A stretch of 64,000 nt of DNA, from positions 248,001 through 312,000 of the forward strand of contig NW_027139272.1 in assembly GCF_035084215.1 (NCBI RefSeq), in the 5' to 3' direction. Source of the DNA: Heptranchias perlo. Lineage: Eukaryota. The position numbers and the translations under genes are program-made. The notes under the pieces were generated by a model that was given only the letters and a program-made list of their open reading frames with translations, did not search any database and had not been told where the DNA came from. Positions 469 through 54,373 of this stretch are shown here, one piece after another; position 1 is the stretch's first letter; the number at the start of each line of letters is the position of its first letter.

Positions 469-577
469 TCAAGGAGATCTTGAAACATTTACCTGAGGAA
501 GGAGAAAATCTCCGAAAGCTTGTGAATTTAAAATAAAATTGCTGGACTATAACTTGGTGTTGTAAAATTGTTTACAA
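469..577 (+). mobile_element. Short Penelope-like element (pLTR) fragment inserted into the satellite
   Basis: 109 bp of non-satellite sequence flanked by a 12-bp direct repeat CTGGTAAACACT (457-468 and 578-589), which occurs once in an uninterrupted B monomer. It carries a hammerhead motif and a small 5' inverted repeat TTCAAG..CTTGAA. The Penelope assignment is inferred from the hammerhead architecture. Confidence 0.7.
487..527 (+). ncRNA. Minimal type I hammerhead ribozyme motif
   Basis: Stem I ATTTAC (487-492) pairs with GTGAAT (522-527). Core CTGAGGA at 493-499 plus an extra A. Stem II GGAG(A)/(T)CTCC at 501-513. GAAA at 514-517, a palindromic AGCT stem III, and a predicted CUU cleavage triplet at 519-521. 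Confidence 0.7.
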
Positions 578-17575: not shown

Positions 17576-18106
17576 TGCTGGCTCTGATCACTCTCGATCC
17601 CAGAACCGGGCAGTCCAGGCTTGTAGTACCTGAGGACCTGACCATGGTGGACGCCAATGATCTGAGCCAATAACCTAAACAACGTCTGCCAGGGGTATGA
17701 GCAGTGCACCTGCGTTCTGAGCAGCCAGGGATTCACCTCAGGGAATCACTACTGGGAGATGGAGGCGGCCAACAAGACCCACTGGGACTTGGGACTGGCC
17801 CAGGAGATGGCCAACAGGAAGGGGCAGATCACGCTGACCCTCGATTGGGTAGTGGACCATCTGTCAGAGGTACGAGCACATCGAAGGGGCTCTGACCTCA
17901 CCCTCCACTGTCCTCAAACTAACAACCAAGCCCAGGAAGGTCAGGGTCTATGAGGGAGGACAGGTGTCCTTTTACAATGCTGATGACATGTTCCATCTCT
18001 GCACTTTTTCACTCACACGTTCAAAGACAAACTGTTCCCTTTCTTTAATCCTTGGTTGAACAAAAGTAGGAGAAACACGGAACCTCTTTTAAACGGCGTC
18101 ATTTGA
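17576..18106 (+). pseudogene. Disabled B30.2 (PRY-SPRY) terminal exon of a TRIM- or butyrophilin-type gene
   Basis: After the acceptor ...ATTAAAAG (17575), manual translation across three frameshifts gives ITLDPRTGQSRLVVPEDLT / CVLSSQGFTSGNHYWEMEAANKTHWDLGLAQEMANRKGQITL / [44 protein letters not shown] / [20 protein letters not shown]. These match the LDP, GxHYWEV, VSFY and LxPFFxP motifs. Stops are TAA 17671 and TAG 17850, and the usual LDY is missing. Confidence 0.88.
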
Positions 18107-22534: not shown

Positions 22535-22780
22535 CTGTTCTCTGCTCGTCTCTGACATTGTCTGTCTCTGCTGGACTCTGTCGCTTTCTGCTGGTCTCTG
22601 CCAGTCCCTTCTGGTCTCTGATGTTCTCTGCTGGTCACTGCAGAACTCTGCCGGTCTTACTGATCTCTGCCGGTCACTGCAGGACTCTGCCGGTCTCTGC
22701 TCATCACGGCAGGACTCTGCCAGTTTCTACTGGTCTCTGATGGGCTTTGCTGGTCTCTGATGGGCTCTGCTGGTCTCTCC
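22535..22780 (-). repeat. Degenerate 10-bp repeat (AGAGACCAGC-like) spanning the cytoplasmic tail and 3' UTR
   Basis: Minus strand: AGAGACCAGC AGAGCCCATC AGAGACCAGC AAAGCCCATC AGAGACCAGT AGAAACTGGC AGAGTCCTGC ... Confidence 0.8.
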
Positions 22781-22894
22781 TGTTTTGCCTCTTGCTCCAG
22801 AAGCCAATTCCGACGATGATGCCAAGAAGAGTGAGTGAGACGGCTGCTGCTCCAGTCCCAATCCCGACATTCGTGCCTCCTTCTGTCGCCCTCT
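22704..22894 (-). CDS. MHC class I-like exon: connecting peptide, transmembrane helix and cytoplasmic tail
   Basis: Acceptor TTCAATAG, phase 1 with alpha3. Translation ERATEGGTNVGIGTGAAAVSLTLLGIIVGIGFWSKRQNRRDQQSPSETSKAHQRPVETGRVLP ends at TGA TGA. The hydrophobic segment is followed by a basic stop-transfer KRQNRR. Not present in the ORF track. Confidence 0.8.
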
Positions 22895-25800: not shown

Positions 25801-28800
25801 AATGACCCTGAGACACAGGGAAGGACCCAGAGGCACGAGGAAGGACCCAGAGGCACAGGGAAGGATGCAGAGGTACGAGGAATGATCCAGAGGCACGAGG
25901 AAGGACCCAGAGGCACGAGGAAGGACGCAGAGGAACGGGGAATGATCCAGAGGCACGGGGAAGGATCCAGAGGCACGGGGAAGGATCCAGAGGCACAGGG
26001 AAGGATGCAGAGGCACGGGGAAGGACCCAGAGGAACGGGGAAGGACCCAGAGGCACAGGGAATGACCCAGAGGCACAGGGAAGGACCCAGAGGCACGGGG
26101 AATGACCCAGAGGCACATGGAAGGACGCAGAGGCACGGGGAATGACCCACAGGCACAGGGAAGGATGCAGAGGCACGAGGAATGATCCAGAGGCACAGGG
26201 AAGGACCCAGAGGCACAGGGAAGGATGCAGAGGCACAGGGAATGATCCAGAGGCACGGGGAATGATCCAGAGGCACGGGGAAGGACCCAGAGGCACGGGG
26301 AAGGACCCAGAGGCACAGGGAATGATCCAGAGGCACAGGGAAAGACCCAGAGGCACGGGGAAGGACCCAGAGGCACAGGAAATGATCCAGAGGCACAGGG
26401 AAAGACCCAGAGGCACGGGGAAGGACCCAGAGGCACAGGGAATGACCCAGAGGCACGGGGAATGACCCAGAGGCACGGGGAATGACCCAGAGGCATGGGG
26501 AATGACCCAGAGGCATGGGGAAGGACCCAGAGGCACGGGGAATGACCCAGAGGCACAGGGAATGACCCAGAGGCATGGGGAAGGACCCAGAGGCACGGGG
26601 AAGGACCCAGAGGCACAGGGAATGATCCAGAGGCACAGGGAAAGACCCAGAGGCACGGGGAAGGACCCAGAGGCACAGGAAATGATCCAGAGGCACAGGG
26701 AAAGTCCCAGAGGCACGGGGAAGGACCCAGAGGCACAGGGAATGACCCAGAGGCACGGGGAATGACCCAGAGGCACGGGGAATGACCCAGAGGCATGGGG
26801 AATGACCCAGAGGCATGGGGAAGGACCCAGAGGCACGGGGAATGACCCAGAGGCACAGGGAATGACCCAGAGGCATGGGGAAGGACCCAGAGGCACGGGG
26901 AATGACCCAGAGGCACAGGGAATGATCCAGAGGCACAGGGAATGACCCAGAGGCACGGGGAATGACCCAGAGGCATGGGGAAGGACCCTGTGGGCCCCCA
27001 AGACACGGGGAAAAGCCCTGCGGCCCTCCCGAGAATCGGGGATGGACCCAGAGTTCCAGGAAGTACCTCGCGGCCCCCCCGAGACACAGGGAAAGACCCT
27101 GAGCCCCCCCCCGATTTGCCACTCACCCCAGGGTACGTTGATCCCCCGCAGGAGGCTGGCGTGCTCGATATGACAGGAGTAGCTCTTCCTGTCGTCTCCA
27201 CTCAGCTCGATCGTTTTCAGTACCCGATAGGTCATATCCTGGTTGGGCAGCACGTCACTGGATTCAATGTCAGCGACCTCCTCGCCATTCCCCAACCAAG
27301 TCACCTCGATGGCCCAGGGGTAGAACCCCGACACAAGGCAGGAGACCCTTAGCACTCTGTCCCCGTCACTCCTCTTCCCAATAAACACCTCAGGGGCGAC
27401 TGAGAGATTTAAACAAAGAGTACAATCGGTGACAAGTTCTCTTCTTTTGCCTTCATTTCTTCCCCGCCCACCACCATCAATTTTCTCGGCCTGAAGGCAG
27501 ATGACTGATGCTGAGAGACAGCTGGAGTTCACCGGAGTTCAGCTGAGGGGTCACCTGATAGAGGTCGTTAAGATTATGAAAGGGTTTGATAGGATAGACG
27601 TAGGGAAGATGGGCGCTAAATAGGGCCGTGTAGCGCCCGTTGTTTCGGTGCTAGACGGCCTCTCCGACATCCAAGATCGCATCTCGGATGCGCACGCACG
27701 TTTCCTGCGTGACGTGCGCCAGACGCCATCTTGGTATAGGAGTTCGTGCAGGCGCAGATAACGAACACTGGAATCATGTAAAGTAGGGAGAAAATGGCTT
27801 CAGTCAGTGTGCAACGCTGATTTAAAGTGATAGACACCATTTCGGGACTTAACGCTCAACTCAACCCACAGTCTTAACCCTGACCATCTGAACGTGTCTT
27901 ACAGTTCCTGGAGGACCCCCCACCGGCACTATTTAAAGGGACCATGCAGGATTTACAGGTTAGTGGCTGGATTATTGCTTCTGGCTGCCGAAACATTCAA
28001 AACTGTTTTTGGAGGTCTCCTACACTTGAATACTAGGACGCGGGGACATCGCGAAACATTTAGAGCCAGGAGGTGCAGGAGTGAAGTTAGGAAATGCTTC
28101 TACACACAAAGGGTGGGAGATGTTTGGAACGCTCTTCTGCAGACGACAGTTGATGCTAGCTCACTTGTGAATGTTAAATCTGAGATTGATCGATTTCTGT
28201 GAAACAAGGGTATTATGGGATATGGGGCTAAGGTGGGTATATGGAGTTAGGTCACAGGTCCACCATGATCTCATTGAATGGTGGAACAGGCTCGAGGGGC
28301 TAAATGTCACTGCCACTTGCTGCCTCTTGATATGCGCCACCTTCTCCTGTGTCTGGGTGATGTGCCTGTCATGGTTGAATAGCTGCCAGTGCGTGTGGCC
28401 TGTGAGTTGTGGGTGGGCGGCTTGAAACAGTGGTAATGTGGAAGGGTGAGAGGAAGCATCTGATGGGAAGAGTTGAGTACTGATGGAAAGAGTTTGTTGG
28501 TATGTGGGTGATGGGGGTGTAGTGTGTGGGGCAGTTGGTTGGAGACACCACTTGACAGTTGACCTCACTCACCTTGACCACTCATGTCAAAGCATTGAAC
28601 TTCTTCCTGCACTGCATCCATGTTCATGATGCTGTGAGCCTGGCATTGACTTCGTCCCCCGTTGCCTCCCACTGGCTTTTGAGTATATGTCTGGAGGGTC
28701 TCTGCCCCCCCCCTCCCTTCCCCCCACTGTGGATATAGGATGTCCCCCCTTCTGTCCACCTCTTGCACCAAGGCCTCTAGTGCATCAGCAGAGAACCTTG

Positions 28801-31800
28801 GTGCACGCACTCTCACAGGGCTGGTACCAACTCAGATCGGCAGATTGGTGAGGTCTGTTGTGCAGATTGGAGGATGTGGGATTTAGTAGTGTGCAACCTT
28901 TATTCAATGTTTTAACATAACTCATCAGTGTGTAAACATAGGGATGGGACCTGCATCGTGTTTTACGTATGTGATGTCTGATCTCCGTTCAGACTCCGTG
29001 CAGACTGTTATTTTCAGCAAATAACAGGTACCAGCTACCTTTAAGAGATTTCCAACAAACATCCTCCCTTTAAGAGATTGGACTCCCTCTGGTGGTGGAA
29101 AGTGTGAATTGCATTGATTCCAGGTGCAAGGCCTGGGATGGAACGTTGATCGCAGGTCGGTCCTCGGGTGGGTCGAAACTTGCATCCTGCCTGCGCCGGG
29201 ACCATTGGACACGGGGTAAAGCACATCGCGCTGCCCCCGCCCAAAAACGGCCACATCCAAATTTTTCCCTCGATGTTTCCACTTGTGGCAGAGGCCAGAA
29301 CGAGGGGCCATAAATATAAGAGAGTCACTAATAAATCCAATGGGGAATTCAGGAGAAACTCAGAGAGTGGTTTGAATGTGGAGCTCGCTCTCACAAGGAG
29401 TAGTTGAGGCGAATAGCACAGATGCCTTTAAGGGGAAGCTGGATAAACACATGAGGGAGAAAGGAATAGAAGGATATGCTGATAGGGGGAGATGAAGTAG
29501 GGAGGGTGCAGCAATAACACTGGCATAGACCTGTTGGGCCGAATGGCCTGTTTCTGTGTTGTAAATTCCATGTAACGGGTCACGTTCCGGTAACGCACAC
29601 AAGCACCCAGTGTTCACGAGTGAGCCTTCACAGTGAGGACCAGGACGCTATTCAACCATGGGGGTATTACAACTTAGTTGAACCCCGTTCTCACCCGATG
29701 TCAACACGCACGGGCTTTCCAGCCGGGGAGACTGAGTCGGTCATCGGATTTAGGTCACCTGCCCGATTATCTCCCCCATCCCCACCCCACCCACCCCAAG
29801 GGGTACTGAGGCCAGGTGCAGACTGGGAATATAAACTTTGCCTGTCCGGCACCTCCAGTTCCCGCTCGCTCGAGGTACCTTTCCTCTGTAGTGCTTCTCG
29901 CCCAGCCCGAAGGTATATCAGCAGCCACTTCACACAGTCCTTTTCCAACAGGGTCTTGAAGTATTTGTTCATGAAGGTGTTCGCATTCCACCGGTCTGCT
30001 AAAGTCTGGAACTCTGGATTCACCGCAATCCAACTCAATCTGTCCTTGTCAAAAACATACGCGTCCTCCCCGTCATATCCAAACTTTATAAACCCCTCCG
30101 TGGAGTTGTCGCTGTTCAGTTCGCAGCCACACATTCCCTGGACAAAGAAAACACCTGGAAAAACAACTCAAGTCAATTGAAAATGTGAAAAGGGTTCGAT
30201 CGGGTACATACAACAACAACAACTTGCATTTATATAGCGCCTTTCACGGAGTAAAACATCACAAGGCACTTGACAAACAAAATTTGACACTGAGCCACAT
30301 AAGGAGATATTAGGACAGGTGACCAAAAGCTTGGACAAAGAGGTAGGTTTGAAGGAGCATCTTAAAGGAGGAGAGAGAGGCGGAGAGGTTTAGGGAGGGA
30401 ATTCCAGAGGGACTATTTCCTCAGGTGGGGGAATCAAGATCTTCGATTTAAAGCCAGGCCATTTAGGAGTGAAATCAGGAAGCACTTTATCACACAAAGG
30501 GGAGTGGGAATCAGGAACTCTCTCCCCCAAAAGGCTGTGGGATGCTGGCGGCCCATTGGAGCTTTCAAGACTGAGATTGTTAAATTTTTGTTAGGTAAGG
30601 GTATCGATGGATAGGAAGCAAAGGCTGGAAAATGGAGTTACGGTGCAGATTAGCCATGATATAAATGAATGGTGGAGCAGGCTCGAGGGGCTGAATGGCC
30701 TCTTCCTCTTTCGATGCTCCTAAGCAGCTGTGTTACGTTGAGGTTCCATTTATGTCCTGCTGTCTTGAACTTTAACCTTAGCAATAGGTTAGATTGTCAC
30801 AAAGAGTCATCGATCTCTGGAATTTCAACGGGATGAGAACAGATCTGGTCCCGGGTAAATCGGAATCAAAGATTGTCAGGCAAAACTGTAATTGAACAGC
30901 GGGCGGCCTTTAAGGAGGAGATGGTTCGGGTACAGTCTCCACGAGGGGGAAAGGGAGGGCAACTAAAGCCAGAGCTCCCTGGATGACAAAAGAGATAGAG
31001 AGTAAGATGAAACAGAAAAAAGGGGCATATGACAGATGTCAGGTTGATAATACAAGTGAGGACCAGGCAGAATATAGAAAGTTCAGAGGGGAAGTGAAAA
31101 AGGAAATAAGAGGGGCAAAGAGAGAGTCTGAGAATAGACTGGCGGCCAACATAAAAGGGAATCCAAAAGTCTTCTATAGGCATCTAAACAGTAAACAGGT
31201 AGTAAGAGGAGGGGTGGGGCCGATTAGGGACCATAAAGGAGATCTACTCATGGAGGCAGAGGAGATGGCCAAGGTACTAAATGAGTAATTTGCATCTGTC
31301 TTTACCAAGGAAGAAGATGCTGCCAGAGTCTCAGTAAAGGAAGATATAGTTCAGGTACTGGATGGGCTAAAAATTGATAAAGAGGAGGTACTTGAAAGGC
31401 TAGCTGTATTTAAAGTAGATCAGTCACCCAGTCCGGATAGGATGCATCCTAGGTTGCTGAGGGAAGTAAGGGTGGAAATTGCGGAGATACTGGCCATAAT
31501 CTTCCAAACATCCGTAGATACAGGGGTGGTGCCAGAGGACTGGAGAATTGCAAAAGTTATATCCTTGTTCAAAAAAAGGTGTAAGGATAAACCCAGCAAC
31601 TACAGGTCAGTCAGTTTAACCTCGGTGGTGGGGAAACTTTTAGAAATGATAATCCGGGACAGAATTAACAGTCACTTGGACGAGTGTGAATTGATTAGGG
31701 AAAGCCAGCACGGATTTAAAGGCAAAACATATTTAACTAACCTGATACAGTTTTTTGATGAGGTAACAGAGAGAGTAGATGAGGGCAATGCAGTTGATGT

Positions 31801-34800
31801 GATGTGTATGGACTTCCAAAAGGCGTTTGATAAAGTGCCGCATGGTCGGCTTATCATCAAGATTGCGGCCCATGGAATAAAGGGGGCAGTAGGGACAGGA
31901 AACAGAGAGTAGTGGTGAACGATTGTTTTTCGGACTGGAGGGAGGTGCACAGTAGTGTTCCCCAGGGGTCGGTGCTGGGACCACTGCTTTTCTTGATATA
32001 TATTAATGACTTCAACTTGGGTGTACGGGGCACAATTTCAAAATTTGCAGATGGCACAAAGCTCGGAAAGGTAGTGAACAGTGAGGATAGTGATAGACTT
32101 CAAGAGGATATAGACAGGCTGGTGGAATGGGCAGACACGTGGCAGATGAAATTTAATGCAGAAAAACGCGAAGTGATACATTTCGATAGGAAGAACGAGG
32201 AGAGGCAATATAAACTAGAGGGCACAACTCTAAAAGGGTACAGGAACAGAGAGATCTGGGGGTATACGTGCACAAATCATTCAAGGGAGCAGGGCAGGCT
32301 CAGAAAGCGGTTAAAAAAACATCCTGGATCCTGGGCTTTTTAAATAGAGGCATAGAGTACAAAAGTATGGAAGTCATGATGAACCTTTATAAAACACTGG
32401 TTCGGCCACAACGGGAGTATGGTGTCCAGTTCTGGGCACCGCACTTTAGGAAGGATGTGAAGTCCTTGGAGAGGGTGCAGAATAGATTTACCAGAATGAT
32501 TCCAGGGATGAGGGACTTTAGTTATGTGGATGGACTGGAGAAGCTGGGGTTGTTCTCCTTGGAACAGAGACGGTTGCGAGGAGATTTGATCGAGGTGTTT
32601 AAAATCATGAAGAAACTATTCCCATTGACAGAAGGGTTAAAAACCAGAGGTCATAGATTTAAGGTGATTGGCAAAAGAAGCAAAGGTGACTTGAGGAAAA
32701 ACTTTTTTACACAGCGAGTGGTTAGGATCTGGAATGCACGGCCCGAGGGGATGGTGGAGGCAGATTCAATCGTGGACTTCAAAAGGGAACTGGATAAGTA
32801 ATGAAAGGAAAAAATTTGGAGGGCTACAGGGATAGGGCAGGGGAGTGGGACTAGCTTGATTGCTCTTGCATAGAACCAGCACGGACTCGATGGGCCGAAT
32901 GGCCTCCTTCCGTGCTGTCACCTTTCTGTGATTCGATGAACAAGTTGCCTGCATGCACAGTGTGTGTGTGTGGACTGCAAGTGTTGGAAAGGGGACTGGC
33001 GACCAATAGAAAGTATCTCGAGTTATAGGAGGTGTGTGGGGTTAATGGGGACCAGTGATATCAGACACTGTGGTCTCCTGCACCTTCCTCGATTCCCTGG
33101 GGGGGGGGGTCGCAGAGGAATCTCCCAGAGTGTTTGCTTTCCTAACTTGGCCTCAGTTTCATCCTCTTTCTTTGGCCTCTCCCAGGAGATTGTGTGACTG
33201 TGGGAGGGAGAGGGTGCTGATGGTGTGTGTGTGTGTGTTGTTTCACCGTGCCAAGACAGGACAGGCTTGATGGACCCGCCTGTCCTGATTTCATCTGTTT
33301 GTTAGTAACCCTGGCAACGCAGCTTTAGAAGAGGAGAAACAAGTGGCAGCGATGATTTCATTCCAACGTTCAAGGTGCTCACATCAAATCCCTCAGTGCT
33401 GCCCCTCCCTCAGTGCTGCCCCTCCCTCAGTGCTGCCCCTCCCTCAGTGCTGCCCCTTCCTCAGTGCTGCCCCTCCCACAGTGCTGCCCCTCCCTCAGTG
33501 CTGCACTCCCTCAGTGCTGCCCCTCCCTCAGTGTTGCCCCTCCCTCAGTGCTGCACTCCCACAGTGCTGCCCCTCCCTCAGTGCTGCCCCTCCCTCAGTG
33601 CTGCCCCTCCCTCAGTGCTGCCCCTCCCTCAGTGTTGCCCCTCCCTCAGTGCTGCACTCCCACAGTGCTGCCCCTCCCTCAGTGCTGCCCCTCCCTCAGT
33701 GCTGCCCCTCCCTCAGTGCTGCCCCTCCCTCAGTAATCCCCTCCCACAGTGCTGCCCCTCCCTCAGTGCTGCCCCTCCCTCAGTGCTGCACTCCCTCAGT
33801 GCTGCCCCTCCCTCAGTGCTGCCCCTCCCACAGTGCTGCCACTCCCTCAGTGCTGCTCTCCCTCAGTGCTGCCCCTCCCTCAGTGCTGCCCCTCCCTCAG
33901 TGCTGCACTCCCTCAGTGCTGCCCCTCCCTCAGTGCTGCCCCTCCCTCAGTGCTGCCCCTCCCTCAGTGCTGCCCCTCCCACAGTGCTGCCCCTCCCTCA
34001 GTGCTGCCCCTCCCTCAGTGCTGCCCCTCCCTCAGTGCTGCCCCTCCCTCAGGACTGCACTGGGAGTGCCAGCCGAGATTTTGTGCTCCAGTCTCTGGAG
34101 TGGGTCTTGAACCCACAACCTTCTGAACTAGAGGTGAGAGTAAGAAGGTCGTGGTTTCAGGCCCCACTCCAGAGATTTCAGCGCATAATCCGGGCTGACA
34201 CTCCAGTGCAGGACTGAGGGAGCGCTGCACTGTCGGAGGGGCAGTACTGAGGGAGCGCTGCACTGTCGGAGGGGCAGTACTGAGGGAGTGCTGCACTGTC
34301 GGAGGGGCAGTACTGAGGGAGTGCTGCATTGTCGGAGGGGCAGTACTGAGGGAGTGATGCATTGTCGGAGGGGCAGTACTGAGGGAGTGCTGCATTGTCG
34401 GAGGGGCAGTACTGAGGGAGTGATGCATTGTCGGAGGGGCAGTACTGAGGGAGTGCTGCACTGTCGGAGGGGCAGTACTGAGGGAGTGCTGCACTGTCGG
34501 AGGAGCAGTACTGAGGGAGTGATGCATTGTCGGAGGGGCAGTACTGAGGGAGTGCTGCACTGTCGGAGGGGCAGTACTGAGGGAGCGCTGCACTGTCGGA
34601 GGGGCAGTACTGAGGGAGTGCTGCACTGTCGGAGGGGCAGTACTGAGGGAGCGCTGCACTGTCGGAGGGGCAGTACTGAGGGAGTGCTGCATTGTCGGAG
34701 GGGCAGTACTGAGGGAGTGATGCATTGTCGGAGGGGCAGTACTGAGGGAGTGCTGCACTGTCGGAGGGGCAGTACTGAGGGAGTGCTGCACTGTCGGAGG

Positions 34801-37800
34801 AGCAGTACTGAGGGAGTGATGCATTGTCGGAGGGGCAGTACTGAGGGAGTGATGCATTGTCGGAGGGGCAGTACTGAGGGAGTGATGCATTGTCGGAGGG
34901 GCAGTACTGAGGGAGTGATGCATTGTCGGAGGGGCAGTACTGAGGGAGTGATGCATTGTCGGAGGGGCAGTACTGAGGGAGTGCTGCACTGTCGGAGGGG
35001 CAGTACTGAGGGAGTGCTGCACTGTCGGAGGAGCAGTACTGAGGGAGTGATGCATTGTCGGAGAGGCAGTACTGAAGGAGTGCTGCACTGTCGGCGGGGC
35101 AGTAGTGAGGGAGCGCTGCACTGTCGGAGAGGCAGTACTGAGGGAGTGCTGCACTGTCGGAGAGGCAGTACTGAGGGAGTGCTGCATTGTCGGAGGGGCA
35201 GTACTGAGGGAGTGCTGCACTGTCGGAGGGGCAGTACTGAGGGAGTGCTGCACTGTCGGAGGGGCAGTACTGAAGGAGTGCTGCACTGTCGGCGGGGCAG
35301 TACTGAGGGAGTGATGCATTGTCGGAGAGGCAGTACTGAGGGAGTGATGCACTATCGGAGGGGCAGTACTGAGGGAGTGATGCATTGTCGGAGGGGCAGT
35401 ACTGAGGGAGTGATGCATTGTCGGAGGGGCAGTACTGAGGGAGTGCTGCACTGTCGGAGGGGCAGTACTGAGGGAGTGCTGCACTGTCAGAGAGGCAATA
35501 CTGAGGGAGTGCTGCACTGTCAGAGAGGCAGTACTGAGGGAGTGATGCACTATCGGAGGGGCAGTACTGAGGGAGTGATGCATTGTCGGAGGGGCAGTAC
35601 TGAGGGAGTGATGCATTGTCGGAGGGACAGTACTGAGGGAGTGATGCATTGTCGGAGAGGCAGTACTGAGGGAGTGATGCACTGTCGGAGGGGCAGTACT
35701 GAGGGAGTGATGCATTGTCGGAGGGACAGTACTGAGGGAGTGATGCATTGTCGGAGAGGCAGTACTGAGGGAGTGATGCACTGTCGGAGGGGCAGTACTG
35801 AGGGAGTGATGCACTGTCGGAGGGGCAGTACTGAGGGAGTGCTGCACTGTCGGAGGGGCAGTACTGAGGGAGTGCTGCACTGTCGGAGGGGCAGTACTGA
35901 GGGAGTGCTGCACTGTCGGAGGGGCAGTACTGAGGGAGTGATGCACTGTCGGAGGGGCAGTACTGAGGGAGTGCTGCACTGTCGGAGATGCCGTCCTTCA
36001 GATGAGACGTTAAATCGAGGCCCCGTCTTCCTGTTCAAACGAACATAAAAAGAACCAATTGCTCCCATTTCTCCCTCAATCCAAACCAATAAAAACAGAT
36101 GAACAAATCAATCATCTCATTGCCATTTGCTGTGCTGAAAATGTCTGCCATGTTGCTCCCAGATAGTGCCAATGACCAGGTCATCCCAAGTCATTTAATG
36201 GGTGTAAAGTGGTTCGGGACATTTCTCCGAGACAGGATAAGGCTCTATATGGATACAAATCCTTTCCTCCTGTCAGTCGATAGCTGCACCGGCTCTGTGA
36301 GGATACTCACTCGAGGCACCGTGTTGCTGTCGGTAAAATATCTCGGCGTTTCCTCTGACCAGACCATGGAACCCCGCCATTGTGATGGCGATGGCGTCCC
36401 AGTGATGGTTGTCGAAGGAGTCGGCCATCCACTGCTGTCTGGGCACAGTCCGCTGCAGGGTGCTGTCGAAATACACTATCTCATAGTCATCGAGCATCGC
36501 GACCAAGCTGTACTCGGGCATCTCGGCCCCGCCACGGCTCAGTATGTAGTAAAATGCGAGGATGTGGAAATCTGCAGGATCACAGACAGAAACCAGTCTC
36601 AAAAATGACGTTAATCATAAGTAACTCAAAGTGGAAACGACTAATGCTCAGCCTGGTTAGACCATAAGACCATAAGAGATAGCAGCAGGAATAGGCCATT
36701 CAGCCCCTCGAGCCTGCTCCGCCATTCAATGAGATCATGGCTGATCTGATTTTTACCTCAACTCCACTTTCCCGCCCTTTCCCCATATCGTTTGACTCCC
36801 TTGCTGATCAAAAATTTGTCTAACTCAGCCTTGAATGTGTTCAATGACTCCACAGCTTTTTGGGATAAAGAATTCCAAAGATTCACAACCCTCTGGGAGA
36901 AGAAATTCCTCCTCATTTCCGTCTTAAACGGGCGACCCCTTATTCTGAGACTATGCCCCCTAGTTTTAGATTCCCCCATGAGGGGTAACGTCCTCTCAGC
37001 ATCTACCCTATCGAGTCCCCTCAGAATCTTGTATTTTTCATAAGATCTCCTCTCATTCTTCTAAACTCCAATGAGTATTGACCCAACCTGTTCAATCTTT
37101 CCTCATAAGACAACCCTTCCATACCCGGAATCAACCTCGTGAACCTTCTCTGAACTGCCTCCAATGCAAGTATGTCCTTCCTTAAATAAGGTCACCAGAA
37201 CTGTACGCAGTGCTCCAGGTGTGGTCTCACCAGCACCCTGTACAGTTGGAGCATGACTTCCCTGCTTTTATACTCCATCCCCCGAGAAATAAAGGCCAAT
37301 ACTCCGTTTGCCTTCCGGATTACCTGCTGCACCTGTATGTTGACTTTTTGTGTTTCATGTCGGAGGACACCCAGATCCCTCTGTACCGCAGCATTTTGTA
37401 TTATTTCTCCATTCAAATAATATTTTGCTTTTTTATTTTTCCTCCCAAAGTGGATGACTTCACATTTTCCCATATTAGGCCACAGTGAGGACGTTGCGTC
37501 CGATTTTGGATACCATGTGTTGAAGAGGATGTCAAGCTCACGGAGAAGGTCGGGAAGAGATTTGCTCGGGCGATCCCAGGGAATCTGGTGGACAGCTCCA
37601 AAAATGGAATGGCTAATGGAACATTGGCCTTTATCTCGGGGGCTGGAATACAAAGGGGAGGAAGTTATGTTCCAGCTGTTCAGAGCTCTGGTCAGACCAC
37701 ATCTGGAGATACTGTGTTCAGTTCTGGGAACCGCACCTCAGGAAGGATAGATTGGCCTTGGAGATTTAGCAGAATGATACTGGGGCTTAGAGGGTTAAAT

Positions 37801-43800: not shown

Positions 43801-46800
43801 TGGGCCGAATAGCCCCCTTCTGTGCTGTATCTTTTGTATGGTTCTATGCCGTTAAAACCGGAAGTGGTCGGTTTGAAGGCGGGTTTTAGATTTTTACAAT
43901 TTTTACCTTCCCACCTGCACCCAAACCCACCCGTTCATGGGGTTAAAATCGACCCCTTAGAGTTCACCTTGGCTTTGACGTGCTCAGAGACTACAATAAA
44001 CAGGCAGTGTTTGACCAGAAATAAATGTCAGTCATGGACACGGATTAACCAGGAGAGAAGCTGCTGTAACAGTAACTTAATCTCTTGCGTTTTCAACACC
44101 ACTCGAGTCTGAAGCTACTTATTGGTGCTTGTGTGCAGCACGTCTGATAACCAGATCCAGTTAGAATGGAGGGACTTGTTCTGGTCACTGGGTCCCAGGG
44201 AGTGGAGTCTGAGCCTGCATCTTACAGCAGGGGTTCACACTGAGGCCCAGCCCAGTATTAACACCGAACCATCGCATCTGTTTACACCCCCTGTATTTCA
44301 ATGGTCTATTCCAGACTCCCACTTTCACCCCTCCCATTCTCTTCCCAATGCACCGACTCTCACTGGCAATGGGACCACAAAGAAAAGAGAGACTCACATT
44401 CCTATTGTGATTTCACCACCTCAGGACCTCCCAAAGAGTTTTACAGACAGTGAAGTATTAGTGAAGTGTCGTCACGGTTTTAATGTAGGAAACACGGCAG
44501 CCAATTTGCGCACAGCAAGATCCCACAAACAGCAACAAGATAATGACCAGATAATCTCCAAACTCCCTCTCCCTCCGCTCCCCCTCCTCATCCCCCTCTC
44601 CCTCCCACAATCCCTCTTTCCCTCTCCCACCCTCTCCCTCCCCCTCCCCTCCCCCTCCTCGTCCACCTCTCCCTCCCACCATCCCTCTCTCCCTCTCCGA
44701 TTCTCTCCCTCTCCCTCCCCCTCCCCATCTGCCTTGTCCTCTTCCCTTTCCTCTCCCTCTCTTTGTCTGACTCCCCCTCTCCTTCCCCATCTCCCCACCT
44801 TTACCCTCTCTCTTCACTCACACACCCTCCCGCACCTCTCCCTCTCGCTCCCCTTCTCTGTCCCTTCCCCATCACCCTCCCTCTCTCCCTCTAGCTCCCC
44901 CAGCCTCTCCCTCCCCTCCACTCTCCCTCCCCTTCACACTCCCTCCCCTCCCCCTCAGCCTCTGCCTCCCACTCTCCCTCCGACTCCCCCTCCCCTTCTC
45001 CCTCTCCATCTCCCTCCCACTATCCCTCTCCCTCCCTTTCCCCCTCCCCCTCAGTTTGAGCATGACGTCCACTGACTGGATTTGGTGACATTGTTCAATG
45101 TTCTGTTATCCTCATGGATTGCTGTTCTGAGGAGCCTCATGTTAAGCGCGACTCGAAGACGGTGCATTGAAAATTAACATAAAAATCTGTCTGTGAATTT
45201 GCTTCGATGCCAATTTATTCTAATTCACCCAGATCAACATCACTGTGAGTATTTTTGCCTCGAGCACCAGTTGATTATTGAAGAGTCAGCAGCTCATTCT
45301 CCCCACAATCGGACACACAGAGTTCACTTTGGCCTTGACCCGCTCAGAGACTATAATAAACGGGCAGTGTTTGCTCAGAAATAAAAGTCAGTCGTGGGCC
45401 TGAGCAACACATCGGACATCGGACAGTCCAAAGTCCATTGTGTTGCTGTGAGGTGAAGGTGGGAACGGGGGGGCAGGCTTCGAATCTGCTTCGATTTCAG
45501 TGTCACCCTGCTGAAGCAGCACAAGAAGGTTCGGAAAGAACAAAAGATCTTTTTATACATCACCTTTCACAACCTCAGGATGTCCCAAAGCGCTTCACAG
45601 AAAGTGAAGTAATGTGAAAGTGTCATCACTGTTGTAATGTCGGAAACGCCATTCATTATGAGAAGTACTTTCATACCGGGGGCTGAAAGGGTTAAATTAT
45701 GAGGACAGGTTGCACAGACCAGGCTTGTATTCCCTTGAGTGCAGAAGATTAACGGGTGCTGTAATTAAGATCATTGAAGGATCTGATAGGGTAGATAGAG
45801 AGAAACTATTTCCTCCGGTGGGAGAGTCCAGAACAAGGGGGCGTCACCTTAAAATTAGAGCCAGGCCGTTCAGGGGTGATGTCAGGAAGCGTTTCTTCAC
45901 ACAAAGGGGAGTGGAAATCTGGAACTCTCTCCCCCAAAATGCTGTTGAGGCTGGGGGTCAATTGAAAATTTCACAACTGAGATTGATCGATTTTTGTTCG
46001 GCAAGGTTATTATGGGATATGGCAACAATGCGGGTGGGTGGTGTTAAGAAACAGGTCGGCCATGATCTAATTGAATGGCGGAACAGGCTTGAGGGGCTGA
46101 ATGGCCTCGTCCTGTTCCCATGTTCCGATGAGATGCTTTGACTGTGTGCAGCAGCTTACATTACTCCAGCAGCCCTCGTGTGCAGGGAGACGCCTCAGAG
46201 CACAGAGCAGGAGGGAGGAGCCCAAAGAGAGGATTTAAGAGGAGCCAGAATCACGGACAGAAGTTGATTCAGGAACAGTGGAGAGGCCGGGAAGGGACAA
46301 GGCAGGAATCCTGAGGGAGATTGCTGGAGAGGGCAGGGACAGGAGAGACTGAAGGATCGGCTCTCAGTGGTGGAACAGAGGCAGTGGAGAAGGAGAGGTT
46401 AGGCCGGTGTGGGAGGAGCGGAGGGGGCATGTGGGGGCATGAGATTGGGGGAGATTGCGGAGGTGGGAAGGGAGGAGGACAGAGAGGGCTTTAAAGGTGA
46501 AGAAATGAACCTTCGAGTCAATTCTGTGGAGTTGGAGGAGCTGATGGGGTTTTGGCACGAACAAGGGATGGGGGTGAGAGGGAGGAGGCAGAACACATCG
46601 ATCAGAACACAATCTCTGAAAGGTTCACACGTGTCTGTGGTCCAGTAATATTGAGGTCGATTTTCACCTTTACCACCTGGGTGTTCAGCATCAACTGGGC
46701 GGGGCAGAGAGAGAGCAAAATCTGGAGAGGAGGATCACACGGCAGGAACAGAACCTGGAGCATTTTCCATCCATTGAAATCCCCCCCGCCCGGCCAGATT

Positions 46801-47386
46801 TCCGTTCTGAACTCAGCCCAGGTGATGCCTAATGTCTCGGAGCTAAAACCACAATCGAGCCCGTTATGTGAAAGGGGATAATGGAATCCTCCTTCAAACA
46901 CCATCCGAGGGAAAGGGTTTTCCTTCCCTCCCCTTCCATTCCCTTTCCCTTCCTTTCTGATTCCTTCCCTTCCCTTTCCCTTCCTTTTCTTTCCTGTCCC
47001 TTCCCATTCCCTCCATCCCCTTCCCTTCCACTGCTTCCGAGGTACAGCTCTAATACCTCACCCCCCAAATGGCTGTTATTTGTCTGTGAGCCTTGACAAT
47101 AATTGAAGAAAAGTGCCTCAAACAAACACTTTGCAAACAGATCAGTGACACAACCTCTCCCAGTGACCCCTCCCCAGAACAGGGATCATCCTTAACCTGA
47201 ATCTCTCACACACCCAAGGCAATGAGATAGTCCAAACCCAGGGGCCGCTCGAGAGCATCTTGTGATGAAGATGGGTTCAATCTCGGTGTCCCCTCAAATA
47301 CTGTCCACAGATAGAAGCTGTTTGATTTGCTTACCAGAGGAGACGTTGGGCACACAGTAAACGTTCAGTAAAGTAACAAGCAGCAT
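22704..47386 (-). CDS. Non-classical MHC class I-like heavy chain gene, 5 coding exons, 350 aa: complement(join(22704..22894,27127..27399,29879..30154,36311..36571,47335..47386))
   Basis: Exons of 52+261+276+273+191 = 1053 nt splice in frame through four GT-AG phase-1 introns with no internal stop. Domain order is leader, alpha1, alpha2 (C101-C164), Ig-C1 alpha3, TM, cytoplasmic tail. The lineage name cannot be assigned from sequence alone. Confidence 0.9.
23270..24440 (+). repeat. CR1 3'-end fragment expanded into a 49-bp minisatellite (about 21 copies), intron 4
   Basis: WPQGVVETETIVCFKGRVAKH..IQGYGERAGQWD (CR1 ORF2 C-terminus) runs into tandem GATTAGTTTGGGATTGATACAGGGCTATGGGGAGAGAGTGGGGCAGTGG, period 49. 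Confidence 0.88.
24620..25597 (-). mobile_element. Deu-domain SINE with 33-bp tandem expansion (about 24950-25597), intron 4
   Basis: Reverse complement of the SINE body at 20350-20820, followed by (CCCTCAGTACTGACCCTCCGACAGTGCAGCACT)n. Confidence 0.82.
25600..27000. repeat. 20-bp minisatellite (GAAGGACCCAGAGGCACGGG), about 70 copies, beginning close to the alpha3 donor
   Basis: Strict 20-bp periodicity, with degenerate copies continuing to about 27110. Confidence 0.95.
27127..27399 (-). CDS. MHC class I-like exon: alpha3 Ig C1-set domain
   Basis: Acceptor TCTCTCAG, donor G|GTGAGT, 273 nt. Translation VAPEVFIGKRSDGDRVLRVSCLVSGFYPWAIEVTWLGNGEEVADIESSDVLPNQDMTYRVLKTIELSGDDRKSYSCHIEHASLLRGINVPW contains CxxxGFYP, W, LPNxDxTY and YxCxxxHxSL. 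Confidence 0.95.
27611..29271 (-). mobile_element. Degenerate PIF/Harbinger-type DNA transposon with a Myb/SANT-like remnant, inserted into a CR1 3' fragment and itself carrying a CR1 3' fragment (about 28030-28305)
   Basis: The CR1 sequence ..GTAGGGAAGAT (27610) resumes as GATGTTTCCACTTGTGG at 29272, with GAT duplicated. The minus strand at 28816-28565 reads RAPRFSADALEALVQEVDRR, then after a frameshift WEATGDEVNARLTAS*TWMQCRKKFNALT*VVK and a GTGAGT donor. Confidence 0.65.
29879..30154 (-). CDS. MHC class I-like exon: alpha2 domain
   Basis: Acceptor TTTTTCCAG, donor AAG|GTACCT, 276 nt (typical alpha2 exon size). Translation SVFFVQGMCGCELNSDNSTEGFIKFGYDGEDAYVFDKDRLSWIAVNPEFQTLADRWNANTFMNKYFKTLLEKDCVKWLLIYLRAGREALQRK contains the GCEL, YDGED and CxxWLxxYLxxG motifs. 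Confidence 0.95.
30210..30720. mobile_element. L2-type LINE 3' tail (minus, about 30210-30410) abutting a CR1 3' fragment (plus, about 30410-30720)
   Basis: (CAA)n-CTTGCATTTATATAGCGCC is the reverse of the tail seen at 57950-57990. The following segment has the CR1 3' UTR motif GGCTCGAGGGGCTGAATGGCC. Confidence 0.65.
30830..32940 (+). mobile_element. 5'-truncated, disrupted CR1 LINE (RT domain and 3' end), intron 2
   Basis: ORF fragments HPRLLREV..NYRSVSLTSVVGK..DFQKAFDKVPH, VPQGSVLGPLLFLIYIND..KFADGTK and RRLRGDLIEVFK. Several stops, frameshifts and deletions. Confidence 0.93.
33389..34140 (-). repeat. 18-bp minisatellite (CCTCAGTGCTGCCCCTCC) attached to a minus-strand SINE head
   Basis: Tandem 18-mers at 33389-34052. 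The unit is a shortened form of the 33-bp SINE-derived unit. A B-box-like GGTTCAAGACCC lies on the minus strand near 34105. Confidence 0.88.
34140..36260 (+). mobile_element. Deu-domain SINE with about 54 copies of a 33-bp internal tandem expansion (about 34205-35990)
   Basis: Head AGAAGGTCGTGGTTTCAGGCCCCACTCCAGAG..GCTGACACTCCAGTGCAG, then array CAGTACTGAGGGAGTGCTGCACTGTCGGAGGGG, then GATGCCGTCCTTCAGATGAGACGTTAAATCGAGGCCCC and a degenerate tail. Confidence 0.85.
36311..36571 (-). CDS. MHC class I-like exon: alpha1 domain
   Basis: Acceptor ATCCTGCAG, donor A|GTGAGT, 261 nt. Translation DFHILAFYYILSRGGAEMPEYSLVAMLDDYEIVYFDSTLQRTVPRQQWMADSFDNHHWDAIAITMAGFHGLVRGNAEIFYRQQHGAS contains the class I H3, DD, FDS, PRxxWM and WD motifs. 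Confidence 0.93.
36661..37475 (-). mobile_element. CR1 LINE 3' fragment
   Basis: Minus-strand ORFs GKCEVIHFGRKN..LVRPHLEHCVQFW and TRGHSLRIRG..RNFFSQRVVNLWNSL; 8-mer tail (TCTTATGG)n at 36661. Confidence 0.9.
37590..38240 (+). mobile_element. CR1 LINE 3' fragment
   Basis: RGLEYKGEEVMFQLFRALVRPHLE, GLYSLECRRLRGD and FHTQRGVEIWNSLP fragments, plus a CR1 3' UTR. Confidence 0.88.
38297..38950 (-). mobile_element. CR1 LINE 3' fragment
   Basis: ORF 38385-38930 LYRALVRPHLEYCVQFWSP..RMRGDLIETYK..QRVVNLWNSLP; TTCTTATG tail at about 38300. Confidence 0.92.
40502..43848 (+). mobile_element. CR1 LINE: ORF1 C-terminal remnant plus full-length but disrupted ORF2 (APE endonuclease and RT), intron 1
   Basis: Endonuclease motifs YFNARSI, GDFNHP and SDHN; RT motifs GVPQGSVLGP and FIDD. 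Frameshifts near 41170 and 42935, stop at 43404; tail ..TTCTATG. Confidence 0.95.
44555..45052. repeat. Polypyrimidine (C/T) low-complexity tract; paralogous tracts at about 51546-52035 and 54910-55350
   Basis: About 0.45-0.5 kb of almost only C and T on the plus strand in each duplication unit. Confidence 0.9.
47335..47386 (-). CDS. MHC class I-like exon: signal peptide MLLVTLLNVYCVPNVSS (proximal copy)
   Basis: ACAACATG start context (A at -3), hydrophobic 17-mer ending VSS, and donor G|GTAAG (47334-47330). Phase 1, in frame with alpha1. Confidence 0.72.
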
Positions 47387-47928
47387 GTTGTAAAGTCACC
47401 CGAGGCGCTGATTAACCAGGAGAGAAGCTGCTGTAACAGTAACTTAATCTCTTGTGCTTTTCAACACCACTCGAGTCTGAAGCTACTTATTGGTGCTTGT
47501 GTGCAGCAGGTCTGATAACCAGATCCAGTTAGAATGGAGGGACTTGTTCTGGTCACTGGGTCCCAGGGAGTGGAGTCTGAGCCTGCATCTTACAGCAGGG
47601 GTTCACACTGAGGCCCAGCCCAGTATTAACACCGAACCATCGCATCTGGTTACACCCCCTGTATTTCAATGGTCTATTCCAGACTCCCACTTTCACCCCT
47701 CCCATTCTCTTCCCAATGCACCGACTCTCACTGGCAATGGGACCACAAAGAAAAGAGAGACTCACATTCCTATTGTGATTTCACCACCTCAGGACCTCCC
47801 AAAGAGTTTTACAGACAGTGAAGTATTAGTGAAGTGTAGTCACTGTTTTAATGTAGGAAACACGGCAGCCAATTTGCACACAGCAAGATCCCACAAACAG
47901 CAACAAGATCATGACCAGATAATCTCCC

Positions 47929-50900
47929 CACAACGACATAGGTAAAAAAAGGGATGAGGTCCTGCAAGGTGAATTTCAGGAGTTAGGAGATAAATTAAAA
48001 AGCAGGACTTCAAAGGTAGTGATCTCAGGATTACTACCGGTGCCACGTGCTAGTGAGTATAGGAACAGGAGAATAGACAGGATGAATGCGTGGCTGCAGG
48101 GATGGTGTAGGAGGGAGGGATTTAGATTCCTGGGACATTGGGACCGGTTCTGGGGAAGGTGGGACCTGTACAAGCGTGACGGTTTACACCCGAGCAGGAC
48201 CGGGACAAATGTCCTCGCGGGGGTGTTTGCTCGTGCTGTTGGGGAAGGTTTAAACTAGAGTGGCAGGGGGATGGGAACCTGAGTGGGGAGTCAGAAGGGA
48301 ATAAAGTTGAGAGCAGCAAGAGAGGGGAAGACCCAGGGGAAATTTACAATACAAATAGTACAAACAGTTGTTCAAGAACAAGTGAAAGGGAAAAGCATCG
48401 AGCAGCGGAAAGAAAGTGTACTTTAGGCACTTTAGGCACGACAGATAAAATAAAAACTAGAAGGCGGAAGGCGATGAACCCAGCATCAAAGCTGTGGCAG
48501 GGGGTTAGGAACCTGAGCAGGGAGACAGAGGAAAGCATATCAGGAAGGGACAGAAGGTATGGAGTAAAAGGTAAAGTGTTAAAAAAGGAAAAAGCAGGAA
48601 CTAAGTGTCACAAAACATATTTGAAAGTTCTTTATCTGAATGCACGTAGCATTCGTAACAAAATGGACGAGTTAACAGCACAAATAACGACGTATGGGTC
48701 TGATCTTGTGGCCATTACAGAAACATGGCTGCAGGGTGACAACGACTGGGAATTAAATATGCCAGGGTATTTAACAATCAGGAAGGACAGGCAGGAAGGA
48801 AGGGGAGGTGGGGTGGCTATGTTAATAAGGGAAGGAATCACTGTAACACAGACAAAAGATATTGGGACAAAGGATCAGGATAATGAAACAGTTTGGGGAG
48901 AGATAAGGAATAATAAGGGGCAAAAAACACTCGTGGGCATAGTATATAGGCCTCCTAATAGTTGCAACTCTGCTGGAAGAAGTATTAATCAGGAAATAGT
49001 CGGGGCATGTAATAAGGGAACAGCTATAATTTGGGGGGATTTTAACTATCATATTAACTGGACAAATCAAATTGGGCAGGGTAGCCTTGAGGAAGAGTTT
49101 ATTGAGTGTATTAGGGATGGATTTCTTGAGCAGTATGTAACTGAACCAACAAGGGAGCAAGCAACCTTGGACCTGGTCCTGTGTAATGAGCCAGGATTAA
49201 TTAATAATGTCCTAGTTAAGGATCCCCTTGGAATGAGTGACCATAACATGGTTACATTCCATATCCAATTAGAGGGTGAGAAGGTTGGTTCTCAAACAAG
49301 CGTACTGAGCTTGAATAAAGGAGACTATGATGGTATGAGAGCGGAATTGATTAAAGTGGACTGGGAAAATAGATTAAAGGGTAAGACGGTACATGAGCAG
49401 TGGTGTTCATTTAAGGAGTTATTTTACAACTTTCAAAAAATATATATTCCACTGAGGAAAAAAGGGTTTCAAAGAAATGACAGCCATCCATGGCTAAGTA
49501 AAGAAATTAAGGATAGTATCCGACTAAAAACAAGGACATATAAGGTAGCCAAACTTAGTGGGAGGATAGAAGATTGGGAAGTCTTCAAAAGACAGCAAAA
49601 AGTAACAAAAGGATTGATTAAGAAAGGGAAGATAGATTATGAAAATAAATTAGCAAAAAATATAAAAACAGATAGCAAGAGTTTCTACAGTTATATAAAA
49701 AGAAAAAGGGTGGCTAAGGCAAACGTAGGTCCTTTGGAGGATGAGACCGGGAAATTAATGGTGGGAAACATGGACATGGCAAAAATGCTGAACAAATATT
49801 TTGTTTCAGTCTTTACAGTAGAGGACACTAAGAATATCCCAACAGTGGACAAACAGGGGGCTCTGGGGGGAGGAGCTAAATACGATTAAAATCACTAAGG
49901 AATTGGTACTCAGTAAATTAATGGGACTCAAGGCGGATAAATCCCCTGGACCTGATGGCTTACATCCTAGGGTCTTGAGGGAAGTGGCAGTAGGGATTGT
50001 GGATGCTTTGGTAATAATTTTCCAAAATTTTCTGAACTCGGCAAAGGTCCCGGCAGATTGGAAAACTGCCAATGTTACACCGTTATTTAAAAAGGGTAGT
50101 AGGCAGAAGGCTGGAAATTATAGACCAGTTAGCTTAACATCTGTGGTGGGTAAAGTTTTGGAGTCTATTATTAAGGAGACAATAGCAGAACATTTGGATA
50201 AACATAATTTAATAGGACAAAGTCAGCATGGCTTTACGAAGGGGAAGTCATGTCTGACAAATTTGCTTGAGTTCTTTGAGGATATAACGTACAGGGTGGA
50301 TAAAGGGGAACCAGTGGACGTCGTGTATTTGGACTTTCAGAAGGCATTCGACAAGGTGCCACATAAAAGATTATTGCTCAAGATAAAGAATCACTGGATT
50401 GGGGGTAATATTCTGGCATGGGTGGAGGATTGGTTATCTAACAGGAAGCAGAGAGTTGGGATAAATGGTACATTCTCGGACTGGCAACCTGTAGCCAGTG
50501 GTGTTCCGCAGGGGTCGGTGCTGGGTCCCCAACTCTTTACAATCTATATTAACGATTTGGAGGAGGGGACCGAGTGTAACATATCAAAGTTTGCAGATGA
50601 TACAAAGATGGGAGGGAAAGTAGAGAGTGAGGAGGACATAAAAAACCGACAAGGGGATATAGACAGGCTGGGTGAGTGGGCGGAGATTTGGCAGATGCAA
50701 TACAATATTGGAAAATGTGAGGTTATGCACTTTGGCAGGAAAAATCGGAGAGCAAGTTATTATCTTAATGGCGAGAAACTGGAAAGTACTGCAGTACAAA
50801 GGGATTTGGGGGTCCTAGTGCAAGAAAATCAAAAGGTTAGTTTGCAGGTGCAGCAGGTGATCAAGAAGGCCAACGGAATGTTGGCTTTTATTGCTAGGGG

Positions 50901-51545
50901 GATAGAATATAAAAACAGGGAGGTATTGCTGCAGTTATATAAGGTATTGCTGAGACCGCACCTGGAATACTGCATACAGTTTTGGTCTCCATACTGAAGA
51001 AAAGACATACTTGCTCTCGAGGCAGTACAAAGAAGGTTCACTCGGTTAATCCCGGGGATGAGGGGGTGGACATATGAGGAGAGGTTGAGCAGATTGGGAC
51101 TCTACTCATTGGAGTTCAGAAGAATGAGAGGCGATCTTATTGAAATATATAAGATTGTGAAGGGGCTTGATCGGGTGGATGCGGTAAGGATGTTCCCAAG
51201 GATGGGTGAAACTAGAACTAGGGGGCATAATCTTAGAATAAGGGGCTGCTCTTTCAAAACTGAGATGAGGAGAAACTTCTTCACTCAGAGGGTAGTAGGT
51301 CTGTGGAATTTGCTGCCCCAGGAAGCTGTGGAAGCAACATCATTAAATAAATTTAAAACAGAAATAGACAGTTTGCTAGAAGTAAAGGGAATTAGGGGTT
51401 ACGGGGAGCGGGCAGGAAATTGGACATGAATTTAGATTTGAGGTTAGGATCAGATCAGCCATGAAATTATTGAATGGCGGAACAGGCTCGAGGGGCCGAT
51501 TGGCCTACTCCTGCTCCTATTTCTTATGTTCTTATGTTCTTATGT
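47929..51545 (+). mobile_element. Relatively young CR1 LINE (ORF1 esterase-like C-terminus plus ORF2) inserted only in duplication unit 2
   Basis: ORF1 NDIGKKRDEV..DGLHPSRTG; ORF2 YLNARSI, GDFN, SDH and KFADDTK. Only one frameshift (about 49870, in a G run) and one nonsense codon (50995). Clean (TTCTTATG)n tail; candidate TSD TCTCCC at 47923-47928 and 51546-51551. Confidence 0.95.
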
Positions 51546-54321: not shown

Positions 54322-54373
54322 CAGAGGAGACGTTGGGCACACAGTAAACGTTCAGTAAAGTAACAAGCAGCAT
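54322..54373 (-). CDS. Second, identical copy of the MHC class I-like signal-peptide exon (distal)
   Basis: Same 52 nt as 47335-47386 at an offset of 6987 bp, with intact ATG and G|GTAAG donor. Confidence 0.68.

Follow-up and report, generated by a model that had tools for sequence, protein, structure and literature searches.

Gene structure of the class I gene

We analyzed a window of 64,000 nucleotides from the sharpnose sevengill shark, Heptranchias perlo (positions 248,001 to 312,000 of contig NW_027139272.1, assembly GCF_035084215.1; all coordinates below are those of the window). It contains a major histocompatibility complex (MHC) class I heavy-chain gene on the minus strand, which runs from 47386 to 22704 in five exons (~24.7 kb), as deduced from six-frame reading and a leader-exon scan. 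Our interpretation, to which we assign a probability of about 0.6, is that the gene encodes an intact non-classical heavy chain of a distinct shark-and-ray lineage, closest to the shark lineage UGA, that is likely paired with beta2-microglobulin (beta2m) and likely carries a lipid-like ligand, not a peptide.

The alpha1, alpha2 and alpha3 exons were located by six-frame reading of the minus strand, and the upstream scan for leader-like exons ranked first a 17-codon exon that is present twice. The leader copy nearest alpha1 (17 codons plus 1 nucleotide; 47335..47386, minus strand, as for all exons of the gene) corresponds to the N-terminus of the RefSeq protein. It is followed by the alpha1 exon (36311..36571, 261 nucleotides), the alpha2 exon (29879..30154, 276 nucleotides), the alpha3 exon, which codes for a C1-set immunoglobulin domain (27127..27399, 273 nucleotides), and a last exon with the connecting peptide, the transmembrane helix (residues 302-327 in the structure model), a tail without tyrosine and the stop codon (22704..22894). 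The four introns are all GT..AG and all in phase 1, and the spliced frame of 1053 nucleotides has a single stop at codon 351. The 350-residue product shows no differences from P0016 (RefSeq XP_067834402.1/XP_067836280.1, Heptranchias perlo), so that the intact five-exon gene of the original prediction is confirmed; its span of 29879..36571 holds alpha1 and alpha2, and the gene extends beyond it on both sides. It should be noted that RefSeq already annotates this gene, under the automatic NCBI name “class I-related” (an MR1-type name).

Pfam detects MHC_I (E 1.7e-27) and C1-set (E 1e-15) in the protein, which has the alpha1-alpha2 platform, the C1-set alpha3 domain, the transmembrane segment and the two disulfides of class I molecules. 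A pseudogene was rejected; the frame and the splice sites are intact.

Lineage placement

Orthologues were found in nine sharks and four batoids, and in addition in Scyliorhinus canicula, mostly with one gene per species (two in the sawshark). Compared with the window protein, they are 64-79% identical in alpha1, 71-80% in alpha2 and 58-70% in alpha3, and in most species the chromosome of the orthologue has the same length as that of the other class I genes of the species. Word-seeded searches, which do not establish absence, yielded none from Callorhinchus, Heterodontus, Carcharodon, Rhincodon and Ginglymostoma. The ESM Atlas returned generic class I clusters only.

The best sequence match of the window protein in the PDB is 9CH4 (E 1.8e-70), titled “shark nonclassical MHC class I, UGA”. 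We used a 90-row FastTree tree, 34-row domain trees and a 28-row IQ-TREE tree with bootstraps, the rows of which were hand-picked from the 90; no row is an identified CD1, PROCR or W-category sequence. UGA is represented by P0039 (E 1e-138 to 9CH4) and UFA by P0030 (E 1e-80 to 8GM8), and the UGA reference is PDB 9CH4, with the nurse shark sequence so labelled in the available part of the PMC10751288 supplement. In the 28-row tree, with which the other trees agree, the lineage of the window protein and UGA form two reciprocal clades, each supported at 100/100 and each with both sharks and rays. Because each clade holds sharks and rays, the duplication that separated them is older than the shark-ray split, which is dated to roughly 270-300 million years ago. 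With the whole ectodomain, the two clades are sisters (89/81) and are joined with UFA (91/83), neither branch being starred. In the trees, the lineage lies outside UAA, UGA, UFA, UDA and, except for a weak grouping in alpha3 alone, the UEA-like clade. The original prediction had left the choice between a named shark lineage (UBA-UGA) and an undescribed one; the trees resolve it in favour of a separate lineage, the sister of UGA and the orthologue of no named lineage that could be compared.

The possibility that the gene is the UGA orthologue was rejected: forcing the window protein together with shark UGA gives p-AU 4.3e-7 (approximately unbiased test), and H. perlo has a UGA of its own (XP_067834249/250, P0203), which shares a 529,794-base scaffold with a copy of the lineage, XP_067834248, next to it in accession. 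The authors of PMC10751288, in the part of the supplement at hand, also give the UGA label to a chimaera sequence. The grouping of the lineage, UGA and the chimaera is not rejected (p 0.159), and neither is that of UGA and the chimaera without the lineage (p 0.092); a broad “UGA family” that includes the chimaera sequence could therefore take in the lineage, which may then count as a UGA paralogue. In free trees, the chimaera sequences labelled “UGA” in that part of the supplement (P0060 and P0094, Callorhinchus milii) fall outside the elasmobranch UGA clade, so that their label is doubtful.

Other assignments were considered as well. A UAA allele was rejected, the window protein lying outside the UAA cluster and keeping 2/8 anchors versus 8/8. 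In the case of MR1, the place of the Schiff-base Lys43 is taken by Thr and the MR1-like row is far away in the tree, which rejects orthology. UFA was rejected, since the 8GM8 orthologues form a separate 100/100 clade with 21-34% identity in the groove domains. UEA/UCA is a multi-copy shark clade that is not known from rays; it was rejected because alpha1/alpha2 are 23-36% identical, the clade is separate and the lineage is present in four batoids. The label of this clade rests on likeness to the G. cirratum “UCA” row in the available supplement of PMC10751288. UDA was rejected too, as UDA rows keep 6-8 anchors and P0217, taken as UDA because it matches Gici_UDA of the same supplement by eye, lies apart in the tree. 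The UHA-labelled stingray row of the supplement, compared by eye only, has an alpha2 domain without either cysteine and an alpha3 domain unlike that of the window protein. A further sequence, P0110, is a long-branch class I molecule whose alpha2 helix region is short; the trees assign it to none of the named shark lineages.

The available query files of PMC10751288 name UAA, UAA-2, UBA, UCA, UDA, UFA, UGA and UHA, and the lineage motifs HILAF and MNKYFK occur in them zero times each. The sawfish table of that paper, as far as available, enters a “class I-related” gene simply as MHC-Ib, immediately ahead of three further MHC-Ib genes. From their names and number alone, the first is probably the orthologue P0006 and the other three are probably the UGA proteins of the sawfish. 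No paper naming the lineage was found in a search that did not extend to the primary papers on UDA, UEA and UFA/UGA, subscription papers and theses, which might include it.

Groove, anchors and structure model

Residues are given in HLA-A2 numbering, which was compared visually with the HLA-A2 rows of the available supplement of PMC10751288; the 37 groove positions follow class I structures. The window protein keeps two of the eight peptide anchors, compared to all eight in three classical UAA-type shark/ray sequences. The alignment reproduces the anchor changes reported earlier (Y7>F, Y59>H, Y/R84>Q, T143>L, K146>R and Y159>L, with W147 and Y171 kept) and restores no anchors, and the non-classical status that had been predicted holds, the protein lying outside UAA in trees. 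The alpha1 exon supplies F7, Y9, L24, H59, I63, M67, F70, L73, V74, N77, F81 and Q84, with a row of glycines at 69/72/76; the alpha2 exon supplies G97, the free C99, the C101-C164 pair, I114, F116, an N-S-T sequon, A123, L143, R146, W147, M152, F156, L159, D163, W167 and Y171. The previously listed apolar residues were recovered in full, including I63, with A123 also as described, and 24/37 groove positions are apolar and 2/37 charged. Mean groove hydropathy reaches 1.13 in the window protein and 1.33 over the 12 orthologues, followed by UFA (0.90, n=2), UGA (0.70, n=18), chimaera rows (0.45, n=3), UEA-like (0.16, n=29), UAA/UBA-like (0.09, n=5), bony-fish (-0.16, n=3) and UDA (-0.58, n=6) sequences; the groove of the lineage is the most apolar among the groups compared.

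The retained fold and beta2m-contact residues were likewise verified (H3, V25, D29, Q96, G100, C101/C164, D119, G120, D122 and P235), and the candidate beta2m contacts H3, D29, Y35, R48, Q96, G100 and D122 are invariant where covered. Position 86 is His, as the predicted loss of the N86 glycan site implied, and a replacement N-glycosylation sequon (N-S/T-T, precursor N121) is present in 13/13 orthologues; the lost glycan site is replaced by this relocated one at the 107 loop. The sequon, the free Cys99 beside Gly97 and the second leader exon (54373-54322) are features that the original prediction did not mention. Cys99, which lacks a partner cysteine in the protein, is found in 13/13 orthologues and in 0/18 UGA sequences, which have Phe there; Cys99, His59, Arg146 and the relocated glycan site are the lineage's own marks.

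Among the 13 species, 21/37 groove columns, 56/142 other alpha1/alpha2 columns and 26/91 alpha3 columns are invariant. The difference between alpha1/alpha2 and alpha3 has p 0.024, a rough value because the species share ancestry. The better conservation of alpha1/alpha2 than of alpha3, with a largely invariant groove, would be the pattern of a fixed ligand. G97, C99 and A123 are invariant in 13/13, and H59, T66, N77, Q84, L143, R146, Y155, F156, L159, D163 and Y171 are invariant in the lineage.

The partial survival of the F-pocket rim bears on the possibility that the ligands are hydrophobic or lipid-modified peptides held chiefly by their C-terminal end, as in some non-classical molecules (HLA-E, H2-M3 and binders of myristoylated peptides). 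The protein still has W147, N77, W167, Y171 and a basic residue at 146, so that part of the hydrogen-bond rim survives; however, the N-terminal network (Y7, Y59 and Y159), T143 and R84 are lost in every orthologue covering the position, and we consider such peptides improbable.

The structure model, built from 143 sequences, has the standard class I fold (mean predicted local distance difference test score, pLDDT, 86.8). In a fold search against 48,161 chains, UGA 9CH4 ranked first (Z 28.9, root-mean-square deviation 1.8, 268 residues aligned), followed by the tied chicken CD1-1 (26.5), ZAG (26.2), a classical marsupial MHC molecule (25.9) and HFE (25.7), and lower by human CD1d (23.7), UFA (22.8) and EPCR (18.8). 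The Foldseek template modelling score is 0.94 for UGA versus about 0.88 for MR1.

Mean floor side-chain volume, a crude measure, is 155 in the lineage versus 165 in UGA and 169 in UAA, and these smaller floor side chains fit a cavity. The mean wall volume is 165 versus 156 in UAA, and bulky walls of this kind would suit a groove that is closed and empty, its apolar residues packed together, in a ligand for a fixed receptor such as HFE, FcRn or MIC, immune or not. The alpha1 helix, with its invariant row of Gly, could permit close packing, HFE is among the tied runners-up of the fold search, and strong conservation suits a fixed protein partner equally. Conversely, the floor has small residues, G97, C99 and A123, which are invariant and suggest a cavity, and UGA, which has the same helix motifs, reportedly holds lipid (PMC12562908, available part). 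A closed groove is, in our estimate, a doubtful explanation.

The free cysteine raises the question of whether a small reactive metabolite or an electrophilic lipid is bound covalently at the floor, in the manner of the MR1 lysine. Its occurrence, unpaired, in all 13 orthologues and its absence from the 18 UGA sequences, and the invariant His59, common to MR1, are compatible with this; but Lys43 of MR1 is replaced by Thr, the floor is nearly devoid of polar or charged residues, and C99, a residue that ordinary HLA alleles can have as well, may simply make the pocket larger. We consider covalent capture very unlikely.

Transcripts and copy number in H. perlo

Three read runs carry the alpha2 exon, in whole or in part; they come from one sample of one study, and their RNA status is a guess, none of the runs being recorded as RNA. 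In run X1, a contig of 1438 bases joins the exact ends of two exons without gaps, with bases 540-812 equal to 27127-27399 and bases 813-1088 equal to 29879-30154, so that alpha2 and alpha3 are present in their whole length; one of the four predicted junctions is in this way seen directly. The contig extends 539 and 350 bases beyond the two exons, flanks which, by arithmetic only, fit the transmembrane exon with the 3' untranslated region, and alpha1 with the leader (313 bases) and a short 5' untranslated region. It has one difference from the window copy, V238I, a variant carried by 7/10 other H. perlo proteins of the lineage, and the X3 contig shows no differences over the window copy's alpha3 exon. 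The gene family is spliced, and the contigs are assigned to the family rather than to the window copy.

Copy number and gene order in H. perlo rest on RefSeq accessions and scaffold lengths. The lineage cluster has 12 accessions for 11 proteins, distributed over at least seven scaffolds, two of which carry three each; the models are near-identical, and some of the 12 may be uncollapsed haplotypes. Across the 10 other proteins, there are only two alpha1/alpha2 substitutions and none within the 37 groove positions, so that groove polymorphism, a trait of classical UAA, was not seen in the H. perlo copies of this one assembly. The window copy could be a silent by-product of recent local amplification, or an assembly duplicate, in a lineage that is still functional: the deepest contig has I238 where the window copy has V238, and the 12 models sit on small unplaced scaffolds. 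However, its frame and all splice sites are intact, and the second contig equals its alpha3 exon with no differences, although three other proteins also have V238. We regard a silent copy as unlikely.

Surroundings of the gene

The second leader exon (54322..54373, minus strand) is 100% identical to the first and lies, with its upstream region, in a ~7-kb tandem duplication upstream of alpha1 (44043-56612; upstream regions 98.6% identical); alpha1 could splice to either leader copy. A third copy of the upstream/5' region (44043..44559, minus strand) is 98% identical and ends before the ATG. The duplication could raise transcription or supply two starts. Simple patterns for the interferon-stimulated response element, kappaB, the cAMP response element and TATA gave no match in the 700 bases upstream of either leader, which is not evidence on regulation.

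A satellite with a 37-base unit (about 412 copies) occupies 8-15398, and a 57-base array fills 61746-64000; the many minisatellites around the gene could favour local amplification. A degenerate 10-base repeat (22564-22782) traverses the coding region of the cytoplasmic tail. Among relatives, the tail of H. perlo P0022 is shifted and longer, and that of the sawshark orthologue is long and repeated. The alpha1-alpha2 intron contains a broken reverse-transcriptase remnant of a long interspersed nuclear element, in several frames (30914-32801, plus strand; family assigned by eye), with further such remnants upstream. A B30.2/SPRY-like remnant in two frames lies on the strand opposite to the class I gene (17666-18059, plus strand), with Pfam SPRY E-values of 0.008 and 0.019, neither reaching the cut-off; in the sawfish table of PMC10751288, TRIM39-like genes also stand ahead of the likely orthologue.

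Proposed ligand and significance

The gene structure, one spliced junction, the loss of anchors, the apolar conserved groove, the separate lineage and the class I fold are established here; that the window protein would bind beta2m and a lipid or another small molecule is our inference. The molecule would stand at the cell surface bound to beta2m, with the ligand tail down in the groove. The apolar groove, made deeper by the small floor residues Gly97, Cys99 and Ala123, would house the acyl part, and Arg146, Asn77, Gln84 and Trp147 at the rim of the F pocket would bind an anionic head group. The top surface (Gly69, Gly72, Gly76, Tyr155 and Asp163), which is nearly invariant, could be read by an innate-like T-cell receptor or a natural killer-type receptor of limited diversity. 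CD1d-like endosomal sorting is not indicated by the predicted protein, because the tail has no tyrosine.

Several points weigh against a lipid-carrying relative of UGA. The excess of invariant columns in the groove over the rest of alpha1/alpha2 is not significant (p 0.065; the species are not independent). The modelled fold confirms kinship and does not pick a function, the runners-up being tied. The support for the sister grouping with UGA is modest, and with alpha3 alone this link is absent, the lineage then showing a weak grouping with the UEA-like clade (84/0.90), perhaps as a result of noise or of an ancient exchange of exons. For UGA itself, lipid binding is reported on the basis of a personal communication in a review. 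Finally, because UGA keeps ~5 anchors and the lineage 1-2, their ligands need not be alike.

UFA and UGA have recently reopened the question of whether lipid presentation dates back as far as peptide presentation. If the lipid-like reading is correct, a third lineage would mean that early jawed vertebrates had already divided non-peptide presentation among several specialised molecules. In a bolder version, which we hold to be quite improbable, the protein represents an unnamed third class I lineage for lipid presentation, equal in age to the shark-ray split, and displays a single fixed class of lipid to innate-like lymphocytes, perhaps captured covalently at the floor cysteine; the approximately twelvefold amplification in the sevengill with an unchanged groove would then reflect selection for dose, not diversity.

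Comparison with known systems

According to the available part of a review (PMC12562908, citing a personal communication), UFA and UGA are MHC-linked, occur in single or low copy and, as judged from crystal structures and mass spectrometry, bind CD1d-like lipids; PMC10751288, in the part available, describes UFA as CD1-like (unpublished). Crystal structures exist for both (UGA, PDB 9CH4; UFA, PDB 8GM8), so that the new lineage is directly testable by the same route. Novelty is accordingly lower than the original prediction implied: the gene model and the lipid-binding shark class Ib molecules as a kind were already known, and groups working on UGA may already count the lineage as a UGA paralogue, which limits the value of the finding. 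The lineage is separate from UGA, has a more apolar groove and fewer anchors than UGA, and is conserved in both sharks and rays.

UGA is the closest system, being the top sequence and structure match, with a groove identity of 47% versus 16-27% for all other groups. Common residues are T66, G69, F70, H71, G72, G76, G97, M152, F156, L159 and D163; the alpha1 motif T66-x-A-G-F-H-G and the alpha2 motif M152/Y155/F156/L159/D163 are shared, and the two genes adjoin in the class Ib region. By contrast, identity per groove domain is 29-48%, compared to 64-80% among true orthologues, and both genes coexist in H. perlo, sawshark, catshark, sawfish and skate. UGA has Y59, Q77, W81, F99, K146, L167 and the N86 glycan, whereas the lineage has H59, N77, F81, C99, R146, W167 and the glycan at the 107 loop. 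UFA, reported as CD1-like, shares the wider clade, the apolar groove and 1-2 anchors; however, its groove identity is 16%, its Z is 22.8, and it lacks W133 and W147, both kept in the window protein. MR1 is the source of the NCBI automatic name and the best PDB match for alpha2 alone, with His59 and a conserved groove in common, but its Schiff-base Lys43 is replaced by Thr here and by T/I/C/A in the orthologues.

Both CD1 and YF bind hydrophobic ligands (PMC9586880, available part). CD1 and EPCR resemble the window protein in the apolar groove and the lost anchors, whereas the window protein keeps the classical Trp set (60, 133, 147 and 167), has a tail without tyrosine and is 27% and 21% identical to them, respectively. 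Chicken YF1 has a classical fold and a hydrophobic groove, with F-pocket arginines that bind acetate (PMC2998441, available part), and YF1*7.1 shares with the window protein the classical class I architecture, the hydrophobic groove, basic residues above the F pocket and non-peptide ligands, the last being a predicted property of the shark molecule. YF1*7.1 belongs to an unrelated avian lineage and was set beside the window protein without alignment, as a functional analogy only. The architecture is that of a classical class I molecule whose groove is greasy, as in chicken YF1 and unlike CD1 proper.

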